64,000 nucleotides of DNA, taken from NCBI GenBank assembly GCA_934248055.1, contig CAKQKI010000008.1:1835-65834 (forward strand), given 5' to 3'. This DNA is from an uncultured Clostridia bacterium. GTDB taxonomy: Bacteria; Bacillota; Clostridia; Christensenellales; Borkfalkiaceae. Positions 36,446 through 64,000 of this stretch are shown one piece after another (position 1 is the first letter of the stretch; each line of letters begins with the position of its first letter). A model generated the notes under the pieces. The model was not told the DNA's origin and made no database searches. It saw only the letters and a list, made by a program, of their open reading frames with translations. Both the position numbers and the translations under genes were made by a program.

Positions 36446-36735
36446 ACGAAAACGAAAATTTAAATTGCGATACCGCGGAAGAATATTACGAATATTTAAG
36501 AAACGCCGAGCGGAAAAAAAGAAATAAGCGCCCGTTCGATTTTGCCGCTCTCGGACTTTTGCTGGACGCTTTTTTCGGTATAGGCGCGATATTTTCTTTT
36601 ATTTCCCTTTTAATGCTTAAAAGTCTGCCCGAAAAAACGGGGAAAGGCTATAAATGGGCAAAAGCCGTGGGAATAACGGGGCTTGTTTTCGGCGCGGCTT
36701 TTTTCACTCTCAGTTGCATTTGCCTTGCGCGTTGA
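36442..36735 (+). CDS. Small hypothetical membrane protein
   Basis: 97 aa with two predicted TM helices. Its start overlaps the SLT gene stop. Confidence 0.45.
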   Translation: MNENENLNCDTAEEYYEYLRNAERKKRNKRPFDFAALGLLLDAFFGIGAIFSFISLLMLKSLPEKTGKGYKWAKAVGITGLVFGAAFFTLSCICLAR

Positions 36736-36783
36736 GTATATAATTACCCGCTCTTTCTATTTAAAACGAATCCGATTCTAAAT

Positions 36784-37485
36784 TTAATCGACTTTTTCGT
36801 AAATTTTTAAATACTCGTTAAAATATCTTAACCCGAATTCGTAAAGCGATTTCGAGTCGAAATGCAAGCCGTCTTCTTTGGAAGTCAGACCGTCGGCAGA
36901 AACGTATCCGACCATCTCGTTTTCTTTTGCGATTTGCCTTAATTGCTCGTTCACGATGTAATAATTGCGTTGAGTTTTCAGCGTTTTACTGTCTTTAAAA
37001 TAATCTCCGAGTCCGCCGATTAAGACGGGAATACCGAAAGCGTTCAAATCCTTTCTTAACGCGGAAAGCATTTTTTCAAAGCGGATTTTATACGTCCGCG
37101 CAAGACTTTCTTCGCAATCGGCTTCGCCCTGATGCCACAATATCCCTGCCAAAGACGACGTTCTCGTTGCTAATTCGGTCTGATACACGGCGTTATCGTA
37201 CAATAAACTTCCCTTTTTCCATTCTTCAAGACTCGTTCCGCCGTCCGCGCAACATATAAGTCCTACGTCGACGCCGAATTTTTCCGCATACTTTTCGGCA
37301 AAACTTTCGGCAAGACTAACGCCCGAAAAAGACCTGTCGGGATTGATCGGTCTGAACATCGGCTGCCAACGCCCGTTACGCAACGTTTTAATATGCGACT
37401 CGTCTATATGCGCGGCTTCCGACAGTTCTCCCCTGCCTGCCATATTAGATTGTCCTATCAACAAAAAAGAATGTAGGGATTCCAT
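36784..37485 (-). CDS. SASA/DUF303-type carbohydrate O-acetylesterase (sialate O-acetylesterase-like)
   Basis: 233 aa. N-terminal LIGQSNMAGRG and WHQGE motifs. Confidence 0.75.
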   Translation of the reverse strand: MESLHSFLLIGQSNMAGRGELSEAAHIDESHIKTLRNGRWQPMFRPINPDRSFSGVSLAESFAEKYAEKFGVDVGLICCADGGTSLEEWKKGSLLYDNAVYQTELATRTSSLAGILWHQGEADCEESLARTYKIRFEKMLSALRKDLNAFGIPVLIGGLGDYFKDSKTLKTQRNYYIVNEQLRQIAKENEMVGYVSADGLTSKEDGLHFDSKSLYEFGLRYFNEYLKIYEKVD

Positions 37486-37766
37486 TCGTCACCTCTAATT
37501 ACCGAAAAGGCGTCTTTTTCGCCATTTTCCGCGACCGTTCGGGCGCAGTACATCAGTACAGCAACCCTCACGCTCGCAAAAAATCATCAAAAAATGCGCT
37601 CTTTTCGGTGCGAAGCATTTTTGCGGATGAGAAACCGACCGCATCGCGGCTCGTTCAGGCAAGGCAAACGCCCGAAGTTGTACTAAAGTACTACGAGCGG
37701 CGTTTAACGCCGCATAAATCGGTTTATCACCGCAAAAATAACTATTGATGACGAATGGAATCCCTA
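37474..37766. repeat. 293-bp structured intergenic element bounded by a perfect 18-nt inverted repeat
   Basis: TAGGGATTCCATTCGTCA at 37474-37491 is the exact reverse complement of TGACGAATGGAATCCCTA at 37749-37766. The interior contains several nested stems, for example GCGGCGT-TTA-ACGCCGC. Confidence 0.7.
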
Positions 37767-37772
37767 TCATTT

Positions 37773-38588
37773 TTATAAAAAAACCTTTATATCTTCTATT
37801 TTTTGAGCGGTTGTTTTCAGAATATGGCAATCTTCGCCGAACTTGCAATCTATGCCGTATTTCGCTTTAACCGCTTGTTTAACGGCAGCCGCTTTTTCTG
37901 TTCTCGTGTATCTGATTTCAAGCGAAACCGGGAAAACGAGTTTTTTATATCTCATTTTTTTTGCATCGGATAACGCTTTAATCGTTTTATCGTATAATTC
38001 CTTGTATAAATCTTCGCCGCGAAAATCAGCGGCGTTCCGCCCTTTCGCGCGCTTTGTAGCCACGGTGACTATATCGTCCGACACGTCGGTTATCTCGCGC
38101 AGACAAACGTCGTCGGAAACGAGCATTAACACGGGAATATTTTTAAACAGCGCTATATTCGAATCGATAAAAAATTCACCGACCGCCTTGTTTGCTATTT
38201 TGAAATACTGAATGCTTTCGGAACTGTAAGTATGGGCAAGAACGCCGTTTAAAGTTCCTTCTTTCGAGTGATAACCCAAAAATATTACGCCGTCGATTTC
38301 AAGAGAATCCGTAAAATTCATCCGCTCGATTGCCGAATTATCAAGACCTACGTCTTTGGCGCGCGGATCGACGTTTTTAAAATCCAGATTATGCCCTACA
38401 GAGTGATTATCCCAGACGTAAACCTGCTCGGCGCCCGAATCGTATAACGCGCTTATAATCACGTTAAGTTCTTTCGTCGCTTCGCAAACCGCAACATCGT
38501 ATTGCCCGCAACCTTTATGCAGGCTTTTATACGGCTCGCCTACGACGTAATTCACTCCTTCCATATCGACCGCAACCAGATATTTCAT
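37773..38588 (-). CDS. M55 family D-aminopeptidase (DppA-like)
   Basis: 271 aa. N-terminus MKYLVAVDMEGVNYV is typical of DppA/M55. Confidence 0.75.
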   Translation of the reverse strand: MKYLVAVDMEGVNYVVGEPYKSLHKGCGQYDVAVCEATKELNVIISALYDSGAEQVYVWDNHSVGHNLDFKNVDPRAKDVGLDNSAIERMNFTDSLEIDGVIFLGYHSKEGTLNGVLAHTYSSESIQYFKIANKAVGEFFIDSNIALFKNIPVLMLVSDDVCLREITDVSDDIVTVATKRAKGRNAADFRGEDLYKELYDKTIKALSDAKKMRYKKLVFPVSLEIRYTRTEKAAAVKQAVKAKYGIDCKFGEDCHILKTTAQKIEDIKVFL

Positions 38589-38620
38589 TTTGCGCTCCTT
38601 TACACATAACTTTATAGGCG

Positions 38621-38657
38621 CGGCACGAGAACGGCGTTTTTGCGTTCCCGTACCGCT
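38621..38657 (-). other. 14-bp stem-loop valid only in the minus-strand RNA (two G-U pairs), without a U-tract
   Basis: Minus-strand RNA reads GCGGUACGGGAACG-CAAAAACGC-CGUUCUCGUGCCGC. It lies 20 nt after the stop of the 627-aa gene. Confidence 0.4.
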
Positions 38658-38676
38658 CTTTAAAGTTTTTTGTTTT

Positions 38677-40560
38677 TTACAATTCGCCTGCCGAAAACGT
38701 AACGTCGTCTATCGTCAGTTCGGAAGCGACGTTCGTTCTTATCAAAAATGTTTTTACGTCGGTTTTTTTGAACTTCGTGCCTGTTAAATTCAGCGAATCC
38801 CAGTTGCTTATATCGAACCTTATAGTGTGAGCATTTCCGTCGGCGCTGACCGTAACGGCGTTAAGCGAAACGTAATTTTGCCCTATGCCGATACCCGAAT
38901 AAAATCTTACGGATATCTGCGCGTTTACAGAAGTTTTTACCTTTACGTAAACGTATTTTACGTCCGCTAATTCCGCGCCCGCAACGTTCTGATTGTAAAG
39001 TCCGTTCCATGCGGTTACCTTTCCTTTAAGGCTCTTGCCGCCCGATATTGCCCCGTCTGTTATATATTCCATCGTATTGCCGCTACCGCTCACTTTCCAG
39101 CCCGCTTCGTCTTCGAAATCATAAAGTACTTTTACGTCGCTTATAGCCGACTCGTCTTTCGCAAACACGATATCGTCTGTTTTTACCGAAGCGACAACGC
39201 TTGACATAACGAACATCGTTTTAATTTCGGTTTTATCAAACGCCGTTCCCGTCGCGCTTAAATTTCCCATATCCACGCGCACGAGATGCCACGCACCGTC
39301 CGCTTTTACGTCTTGTCCGAACTGCAGATACGACTCGTCGAAAGCGTTGTTCTCCTTAAAAAATCTTAACGTTATTCTTGTGTTTACGCTCGATTTGACT
39401 TTGAAAGTAATGTAATTTACGTCGCCGAAATCGATTTCTTTATCGAGATTATCGCGATATATTCCGTTATAACCCCCGGTTGTAGCGAAAAGCAAACTCT
39501 TTGCGCCCGATATTGCTCCGTCGGTTATATATTCTTTAGTAGTGCTTCCCGTCGTTTTCCATTTCGTCGTTTCGGTTTCGAAATCGTCAAACACGCACGA
39601 ATTTGCAAATACCGCGTTCAGGGTAACGTCTTCTACTATCGGCGCGTTGAAATCGAAGTCTGTTCCGTCCTTTTGCCACCCTATAAGGTCGTAAGGATAT
39701 AAGGCGTCTTTTTCGGCGTAATCTGCCGATACTTTTCCGCCAAACCTTACTTCGGCAACTACGTTTTGCTGACTTGTGCCGAAATTAAACGTTACGTTCA
39801 GCCTGTCGAGTTTATAATAAAGTTTTAAAACCAGAGTTCCGTCGCTCTTAACCATGCCTGCGGCAACTCTGTCCGCGTGAGCCGTATCTTCCGAATAGTG
39901 TTCCGCGCTCAACGGTTCGGCCGAAACGTCAGTATAGCAAAAACCTTTTAATAATTGCGTTTTGCTTTCGTCAATCGCGTATTCGCCGTTTACGTTTTCA
40001 AAATAATGCTCCACCGTATAATCCGCTTCGCCCGCAAATTTTTCAAGCAACGCTTTCTGCGCCGCCGTAAAAGTCGCGCTTTCGTCGGATAACGCCCTGC
40101 CGGCAACGTAAGAAATGCTTTTCACGGCCGATTTACCGTATTCGATTTGACCGTCTGCGCGTTTTACGTAACTGCGCGCGACCACGTTTGCCGAATATTC
40201 GCTTTCGGGGATATTATAAACTACCGCCCTGAAACTATACGTTCCCTTTTCGTTTTCGAAAGGAATACAGGGAATATTCAGAACTTCGGGCGTTTCAAAG
40301 GTGAGTTCTTTGCCTTGTTCCGTTTTGCTTTCGGGCAATAAAAGCGTGCCGTAAACGTAGTTTTTATTATAGGAATTTACCGTCGTCTGAAAACGAAGAC
40401 CCGATAACTCGCTCAATCTTACCGACGCGCCGTCGATAGCAGGAACTTCTCCTTCTGCGGCAAAAGCCGCGTTTTTGTAAGTCGCTACCGATAAAGACGC
40501 TAACGTCAGACTTATTACGGCGCATACGCCGATTATCAATTTTTTAATACTTCTTTTCAT
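38677..40560 (-). CDS. Secreted multi-domain carbohydrate-binding protein
   Basis: 627 aa with a signal peptide. It has a Listeria-Bacteroides-type repeat (GWQKDGTDFDFNAPIVEDVTLNAVF) and two ~140-aa CBM-like modules, each starting FDDFE/YDFED...YITDGAISG. Confidence 0.6.
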   Translation of the reverse strand: MKRSIKKLIIGVCAVISLTLASLSVATYKNAAFAAEGEVPAIDGASVRLSELSGLRFQTTVNSYNKNYVYGTLLLPESKTEQGKELTFETPEVLNIPCIPFENEKGTYSFRAVVYNIPESEYSANVVARSYVKRADGQIEYGKSAVKSISYVAGRALSDESATFTAAQKALLEKFAGEADYTVEHYFENVNGEYAIDESKTQLLKGFCYTDVSAEPLSAEHYSEDTAHADRVAAGMVKSDGTLVLKLYYKLDRLNVTFNFGTSQQNVVAEVRFGGKVSADYAEKDALYPYDLIGWQKDGTDFDFNAPIVEDVTLNAVFANSCVFDDFETETTKWKTTGSTTKEYITDGAISGAKSLLFATTGGYNGIYRDNLDKEIDFGDVNYITFKVKSSVNTRITLRFFKENNAFDESYLQFGQDVKADGAWHLVRVDMGNLSATGTAFDKTEIKTMFVMSSVVASVKTDDIVFAKDESAISDVKVLYDFEDEAGWKVSGSGNTMEYITDGAISGGKSLKGKVTAWNGLYNQNVAGAELADVKYVYVKVKTSVNAQISVRFYSGIGIGQNYVSLNAVTVSADGNAHTIRFDISNWDSLNLTGTKFKKTDVKTFLIRTNVASELTIDDVTFSAGEL

Positions 40561-63892: not shown

Positions 63893-64000
63893 ATTTTATT
63901 TTTGTCTGGCATTCCATTCGTCGGGGCTATCGTCGCATAAGTCAGCGAATATATCAACGGCACGGAAAAATAGCGCGTAAACATTTCATATATAAAAATA
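63859..64000 (-). CDS. 3' end of an unidentified gene running off the window
   Basis: An open minus-strand frame gives ...YEMFTRYFSVPLIYSLTYATIAPTNGMPDKNKIEKSSITALIA*. Only 46 codons are visible. Confidence 0.25.
   Translation of the reverse strand, partial: IFIYEMFTRYFSVPLIYSLTYATIAPTNGMPDKNKIEKSSITALIA

Follow-up and report, generated by a model that had tools for sequence, protein, structure and literature searches.

MITEs, non-autonomous DNA transposons with bacterial definitions and examples on record (PMC11602168, PMC3049150, PMC3184786, PMC10969869), range in size from 50 to 800 bp (PMC11602168). Among them, the Correia elements of Neisseria and the pneumococcal RUP elements, the latter linked to IS630-Spn1, are small and non-coding, carry long terminal inverted repeats (TIRs) and are flanked by a TA duplication. 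Their copies number in the tens and lie mainly at the ends of genes, their transcripts fold into long hairpins, and they are able to alter the expression of neighboring genes. [quoted passage not shown] In-frame intragenic MITEs have been described as well, as Rickettsia palindromic elements (RPEs) and as ORFs with intragenic ERIC or BOX elements (PMC10969869, PMC3049150).

Here, we analyze an element from an uncultured Clostridia bacterium, found at the junction of a peptidase M55 gene and a SASA-family esterase gene in a window of 64,000 nt (the whole stretch of DNA analyzed). It resembles Correia and RUP elements in every feature of build listed above, and by analogy may also alter the expression of its neighbors. 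Unlike these, it shows no sequence similarity to either, its genus contains no IS630-type (DDE_3) transposase in 38 genomes, and its family keeps both a size of ~295 bp and a two-domain covarying core across species (at up to 30% element divergence). As with REP2 and the Borrelia IR, a dispersed repeat would provide a downstream ORF with translation-initiation signals. REP2, however, has no TIRs and carries these signals in its consensus, whereas here only the ATG belongs to the MITE consensus and the Shine-Dalgarno sequence would stem from two post-insertion mutations in one copy; moreover, unlike in REP2 and the Borrelia IR, no promoter is predicted in the MITE. Like intragenic RPE, ERIC and BOX elements, the insert sits within a coding sequence, fits its frame (291 nt, or 97 codons) and adds codons (MESL). 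In contrast to them, it is not translated within the protein: TAG and TGA codons end the through-frame, and the restart lies in the TIR. Overall, our comparisons favor, with a probability of about 0.8, a history in which a MITE inserted in codon 2 of the esterase gene and the gene was restarted at the TIR ATG with a two-mutation Shine-Dalgarno sequence, in coupling with M55.

The element and its family

The original prediction had pointed to an 18-mer, TAGGGATTCCATTCGTCA (37474-37491), and its exact reverse complement (37749-37766), both of which we confirmed. The inner pairing of 37619-37638 with 37719-37738 was also borne out, and further nested hairpins accompany it. The perfect 18-nt inverted repeat is the intact portion of a 28-nt TIR, with 86% complementarity over the 28 nt; by our own estimate, chance would place two perfectly inverted 18-mers within 300 nt of each other ~3e-4 times per 64 kb. 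The minus-strand RNA of the element is predicted to fold at -154.5 kcal/mol (z = -12.9 versus shuffles). The element in the window by itself encodes no protein, and the frames of the family consensus are all broken by stops. Positions are collected in Table 1.

Table 1. Positions of the element, its parts and the adjoining gene features in the window
Feature	Position	Strand	Remarks
MITE copy, 293 bp including both TA	37474..37766		At least 12 full-length genomic copies at 86-98% identity
Left TIR	37474..37501		Family consensus TAGGGATTCCATTCGTCATCACTAATTA; window copy ...GTCACCTCTAATTA
Right TIR	37739..37766		
TA target-duplication copy 1	37474..37475		Six empty-site contigs with a single TA (ATGA-TA-CGT)
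TA target-duplication copy 2	37765..37766		With the preceding A (37767), old codon 2, ATA
Internal hairpin domain 1	37502..37608		Helices 37502-37519/37590-37608, 37525-37542/37566-37583, 37545-37551/37556-37562
Internal hairpin domain 2	37617..37739		Outer helix 37617-37637/37720-37739, the inner pairing of the original prediction, with smaller hairpins inside
SASA-family (PF03629) esterase gene	36784..37485	-	233 aa, MESLHSFLLIGQSNMAGRG...
Peptidase M55 gene	37773..38588	-	Upstream in the esterase operon
Original esterase ATG	37768..37770	-	M55 stop TAA (37773-37775) ends 2 nt before it
Present esterase ATG	37483..37485	-	Inside the TIR; TGACGA ATG GAA TCC CTA
Shine-Dalgarno GAGGTGA	37489..37495	-	From two substitutions private to the window copy
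91-codon open frame	37495..37770	-	Opens at the old ATG and spans the entire element; stop TAG overlaps the new Shine-Dalgarno

A BLAST search of the element against its own 1.87-Mb assembly, the check proposed along with the original prediction to recognize a MITE, returned many copies: at least 12 are full-length (86-98% identity) and ~10 more are truncated or nested. The partial copies end at element positions 242, 178 or 152, and the genome also contains several 55-nt right ends and ~12 solo 24-nt termini. Aligned with their flanks, all own-genome copies span TAGGG to CCCTA, and the flanks share only the TA. The family consensus is 295 nt long with the TIR TAGGGATTCCATTCGTCATCACTAATTA. Carriers within the genus are only 3 of 37 genomes, and relatives 70-97% identical and 286-296 bp long occur in many related MAG species. 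A degenerate TIR pattern matched at least 104 stretches, which come from many uncultured gut Clostridia/Christensenellaceae-type MAGs; where both ends were found, they lie 286-296 bp apart, or ~560-740 bp apart with nested or adjacent elements. Family copies thus measure 286-296 bp and contain no transposase gene, are dispersed in multiple copies of high identity, and in every case keep the 28-nt TIR at both ends, compared with a MITE threshold of at least 10-15 bp. By these sequence features, we classify the window element as a MITE, a non-autonomous DNA transposon, ~295 bp long with 28-nt TIRs, a conserved and heavily base-paired core and a TA duplication. Its family is new, but the kind is known: orphan MITEs that target TA.

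Several copies and fragments merit separate description. The solo 24-nt units have the form TAGGGA-TTCCATTCGTCA-TC(A/C)CTA, stop exactly after base 24 and each form a small hairpin (in G000, for example, C2:226854-226877, C11:10581-10604, C1:75543-75566 and C1:213711-213734); one carries a compensatory TAGAGA/TCTCTA stem. Similar units occur in other genomes (L050, L062, L073, L082, L096, L098, L102, L107 and L114), and all of these might represent footprints of excision, minimal elements or units akin to REPs. A 53-nt mini-element (G000 C1:121870-121922) consists of two diverged termini back to back and seems to derive from the family by internal deletion. At G000 C3:47380-47673, two convergent genes both stop at a TAG formed by the element termini, and at G000 C3:161485-161779 the TAA of the upstream gene overlaps base 1 of the element. 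Given its TA target, the MITE can replace stop codons harmlessly.

We also identified a second, unrelated MITE of 275 bp with the TIR GCCAGACAAGAATAAT (reference copy G000 C3:204354-204628), which is present in about nine full-length and many partial copies, often at contig ends. The class of first-family copies cut at 242 consists of elements with this 275-bp MITE nested at ~242, with a duplicated AT around the insert. In the window, at ~63896-63923, a 275-bp MITE terminus abuts a TIR fragment of the first element, beside an inverted ybaK duplication.

The TA duplication points to IS630/Tc1-mariner-like chemistry, and in the sequences that we searched no DDE_3 gene is paired with matching TIRs, so that IS630-derived membership is not established. 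Specifically, the DDE_3 (PF13358) transposase is absent from all 38 genus genomes and present in 2 of 18 other host genomes, with no TIR-like sequence near those genes. Neither G000 nor G015 contains IS4/IS5 (PF01609) or rve (PF00665) genes. No TIR pairs more than 750 bp apart were detected in the own genome or at 80 loci elsewhere; as MAGs often lose IS copies, this absence of a cognate IS is weak evidence. The ORFs beside odd TIR copies are, judged by eye, ordinary host genes in appearance.

We next asked how the structure is kept across the family, using an alignment of 32 members (70-100% identical, 302 columns). RNAalifold predicts 88 pairs, 20 of them with compensatory double changes. 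In our own count, 97% of cells are paired versus 41-50% with the partners slid by 1-3 columns, and 22-23 pairs show double changes versus 3-10 in the slid controls, mostly in internal helices. The two TIR ends also co-vary between species (TTCC...GGAA versus AAAC...GTTT), as expected when one transposase binds both ends. Conservation of the internal helices needs another cause: hairpins acting in transposition, a role at the RNA level, or template-switch mutation at palindromes. On the consensus strand, 68 G-U cells compare with 37 A-C cells, and five of six tandem-gene copies share an orientation; each of these signals is too weak to call the strand on which the structure acts.

Insertion into the second codon of the esterase gene

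To reconstruct the empty site, we joined the two flanks with a single TA, which gives TAA-AA-ATG-ATA-CAT-TCT... and, in frame, MIHSFLLIGQSNMAGRG. In a protein search, P0001 and P0125 (98% identical, 231 aa) have the N-terminus MIRSFLLIGQSN, and P0003 and P0004 have MIHSFLL. At the DNA level, L031 and L148-L150, which are 98-99% identical and share the gene order, have GGTTTTTTTATGATACGTTC, with the junction GGTTTTTTT-ATG-ATA-CGT, and L034 and L035 (92% identical) read TTTTTATAAAAATGATACGATC, with the junction TTTTTATAAAA-ATG-ATA-CGA; the latter equals the joined-flank model except in the third codon. All six contigs have a single TA where the insert is bracketed by TA...TA, establishing the target-site duplication for the window copy; for the remaining copies the evidence consists of their TA flanks. 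In net terms, the insert adds 291 nt (97 codons) and is bordered by TA on both sides.

Since close strains carry the empty single-TA site, we conclude that the TA in codon 2 (ATA) of the esterase, just past the M55 stop, was the insertion target of the element and was duplicated. Of the earlier suggestion of a MITE lying between the M55 and esterase genes, the MITE stands, on its dispersed copies, its TA...TA flanks at all copies and its empty single-TA site in near-identical strains, and the position does not: the site is the original second codon of the esterase. The insertion separated the esterase ORF from its original ATG. The inserted allele (P0121) is found on at least six public contigs, and one contig from a Hadza gut metagenome is identical to the window across 3.7 kb. 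A metagenome scan for the insertion junction, seeking intermediate alleles that lack the Shine-Dalgarno changes, gave no matches.

Two further observations concern the empty-site strains. The M55-esterase junction contains a 6-nt indel (ATAAAA) that is polymorphic between strains (window 37767-37775 versus L031:2740-2756 and L148-L150): L031 and L148-L150 have an ATGA stop/start overlap, and the window, L034 and L035 have TAA-AA-ATG. In addition, public calls of the empty-site esterase (P0122-P0134, 219 aa; L034:1465-2160) often start at the Met of GQSNMAGRG and lose the catalytic GQSN motif, while the DNA has an in-frame ATG-ATA-CGA 36 nt upstream. The 219-aa start is, going by this DNA, an annotation artefact.

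A probable translation start inside the inverted repeat

The present esterase ORF runs from the TIR ATG-GAA-TCC-CTA in frame into CAT-TCT-TTT (H-S-F), for a predicted protein MESLHSF.... The start codon and the codons MESL thus lie inside the left arm, as the original prediction had it, and the GAGGTG that it had read as a Shine-Dalgarno sequence next to the left 18-mer is indeed there, as a GAGGTGA 3 nt 5' of the ATG and with its GAGG core 6 nt before it. The TIR ATG is present in G000-type copies, including all 12 full-length copies of the own genome, and absent in some variants from other genomes (for example the G015/G016 type). The GAGGTGA, in contrast, is unique to the window copy among the 32 aligned family members, the others having GTGATGA or variants of it. 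Three changes set the window copy apart from its sister (C3:25192-25485), all of them private to the window copy, and a pair of these forms the Shine-Dalgarno sequence: GTGATGA>GAGGTGA on the mRNA strand, corresponding to the plus-strand changes 37492 T>C and 37494 A>T. These two substitutions change the predicted anti-Shine-Dalgarno pairing from -5.4 to -11.5 kcal/mol, with the anti-Shine-Dalgarno taken as canonical rather than from the host because the MAG contains no 16S gene. The fraction of substitution pairs in the 293 nt that do as well is 1.3e-5, in a test framed after the pattern had been seen.

Across the own genome, a Shine-Dalgarno core precedes the first ATG of 33% of long ORFs versus 0.3% at control positions, and by this measure the organism clearly uses Shine-Dalgarno-led initiation. 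The two substitutions were probably selected for restoring esterase translation. Compared with the empty allele L148, the esterase differs by nine synonymous codons and one non-synonymous codon, a split that fits constraint, over a count that spans pre-insertion time as well.

With the TIR arms paired in the predicted mRNA fold, the new AUG has an equilibrium P(unpaired) of 0.0009, which makes free initiation there look difficult. When 31 nt around the old ATG are kept single-stranded, the predicted value rises to just 0.07, and with the AUG in an 18-22-bp helix, translation of the esterase may be weak or absent. The old ATG now heads a frame of its own, which stays open for 91 codons through the 5' arm and the rest of the element and ends at the junction TAG AGG TGA CGA ATG, a stop-restart geometry of TAG-AGGTGACGA-ATG with the TAG 9 nt before the new AUG. 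Translation of this frame would open the helix, and the ribosome would terminate right at the new start, as in termination-reinitiation; in this way, ribosomes arriving from M55 or from the old ATG could unzip the TIR helix and re-initiate at the new AUG. That the old-ATG frame ends at the Shine-Dalgarno sequence suggests translational coupling in this model.

The arrangement can be set beside known coupled genes. In L031 and L148-L150, M55 and the esterase meet in the ancestral ATGA overlap, as in ATGA-type coupled genes, and the present junction, TAG-9 nt-ATG with the Shine-Dalgarno sequence overlapping the stop, resembles termination-reinitiation pairs. Unlike in ATGA-type genes, the upstream 91-codon frame is a transposon by-product, and the coupling is deduced from the geometry. 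Given the ancestral overlap in some strains, coupling between M55 and the esterase would be preserved, and termination-reinitiation is a plausible means in the modeled RNA. We rejected the open frame itself as strong evidence of selection: we estimate its chance occurrence at ~0.1, and it rests on two 1-nt deletions that are both shared, one with the sister copy and one with C3:47380-47673. The equivalent frame in the other 11 copies stops after 19-89 codons, before that TAG, and in the consensus after 38. Since its deletions occur in other copies, the open frame may have been inherited.

Three other readings of the locus have to be weighed against a MITE whose host gene was restarted from its TIR. 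The original prediction had also considered a long esterase 5' leader, riboswitch-like or protein-controlled, in which the distal 18-mer acts as a regulated anti-start. The very stable predicted fold, the predicted occlusion of the start codon and the covariation of the internal helices all suit such a leader. Yet the sequence sits at more than 20 unrelated loci, in every type of gene context, orthologous leaders in 92-99% identical strains are without it, and the covariation belongs to the repeat family and not to esterase leaders. The prediction had also matched no known riboswitch class, and our Rfam scan of 36500-38800 agrees, with no match within the element even at E<=10. Dispersed copies and target duplications refute the riboswitch reading, and we give a regulated leader virtually no credence. 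What survives of it is the burial of the new AUG (P(unpaired) ~0.001 as predicted), which in the modeled fold is a by-product of the TIRs and not a ligand switch. A REP/REPIN origin, with the 24-nt TAGGGA-N12-TCNCTA hairpin as a REP spread by RAYT and the 295-bp element as an inverted doublet, is highly unlikely in our judgment. It would account for the exact ends of the solo units (after TCACTA or TCCCTA), their compensatory stem and their presence in other genomes. But G000 and G015 carry the element without a Y1 transposase (PF01797), for which G016 yielded a sub-threshold match only, and a TA duplication is typical of DDE cut-and-paste rather than of the IS200/RAYT mechanism; these two findings make a REP/RAYT system unlikely. 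In addition, the conserved core is 247 nt long, and REPIN spacers are far shorter.

The third reading accepts the MITE and denies the repair: the insertion simply inactivated the esterase, the ORF beginning MESL is a fortuitous in-frame extension to the TIR ATG, and the Shine-Dalgarno-like substitutions are neutral. We hold this to be unlikely, although it explains part of the data. In the predicted fold, all of the new AUG is paired, and the insertion is recent enough for an intact ORF to prove little. A parallel case can be found beside the sister copy, where a 572-aa ORF (G000 C3:25474-27192) also extends in frame to the TIR ATG (MESLPKENIM...). Its native start is probably an ATG 27 nt downstream of the TIR ATG, so that this extension looks like chance and is probably meaningless. 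Against plain inactivation, two of the three private changes, only 2 nt apart, give a perfect 7-nt Shine-Dalgarno sequence at ideal spacing, with a chance of ~1e-5 (framed post hoc) and no counterpart among 32 relatives, and the allele persists on at least six contigs. We also rejected an outward promoter from the element as an explanation, because none was predicted in it; no terminator was predicted on the gene strand either. We retain the restart of the esterase gene at the TIR ATG as the preferred reading.

A broader proposal concerns the family as a whole. The length of the ~250-nt two-domain core and the 97% of pairs kept across species, along with the failure to find a transposase, make it possible that the family is not just a transposon relic in decay but a selected mobile module of structured nucleic acid, whose window copy has turned into a uORF-driven coupling device that gates the esterase start. 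We regard this as unlikely. Possible roles for such a module are as RNA, affecting the stability or translation of the flanking messages, or alternatively as a single-stranded DNA form for an unrecognised mobilising enzyme.

Probable repair of a transposon-hit gene

With the MITE assignment, a false riboswitch candidate is removed, and public annotation is seen to be affected as well, esterase calls often beginning at an internal Met and losing the catalytic GQSN motif. Both the ~295-bp and the 275-bp families break contigs in these gut MAGs. For the esterase gene, the alleles before and after are both available, and together they would document the repair of a transposon-hit gene without excision. 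The parts of this repair would be the ATG of the TIR, an in-frame junction that runs through the duplicated TA, and a ribosome-binding site made by two point mutations, amounting to a compact natural case of a translation start evolved de novo. More generally, with a TAG at the tip and an ATG 12 nt inside, the ends of this MITE may serve as portable stop and start codons.
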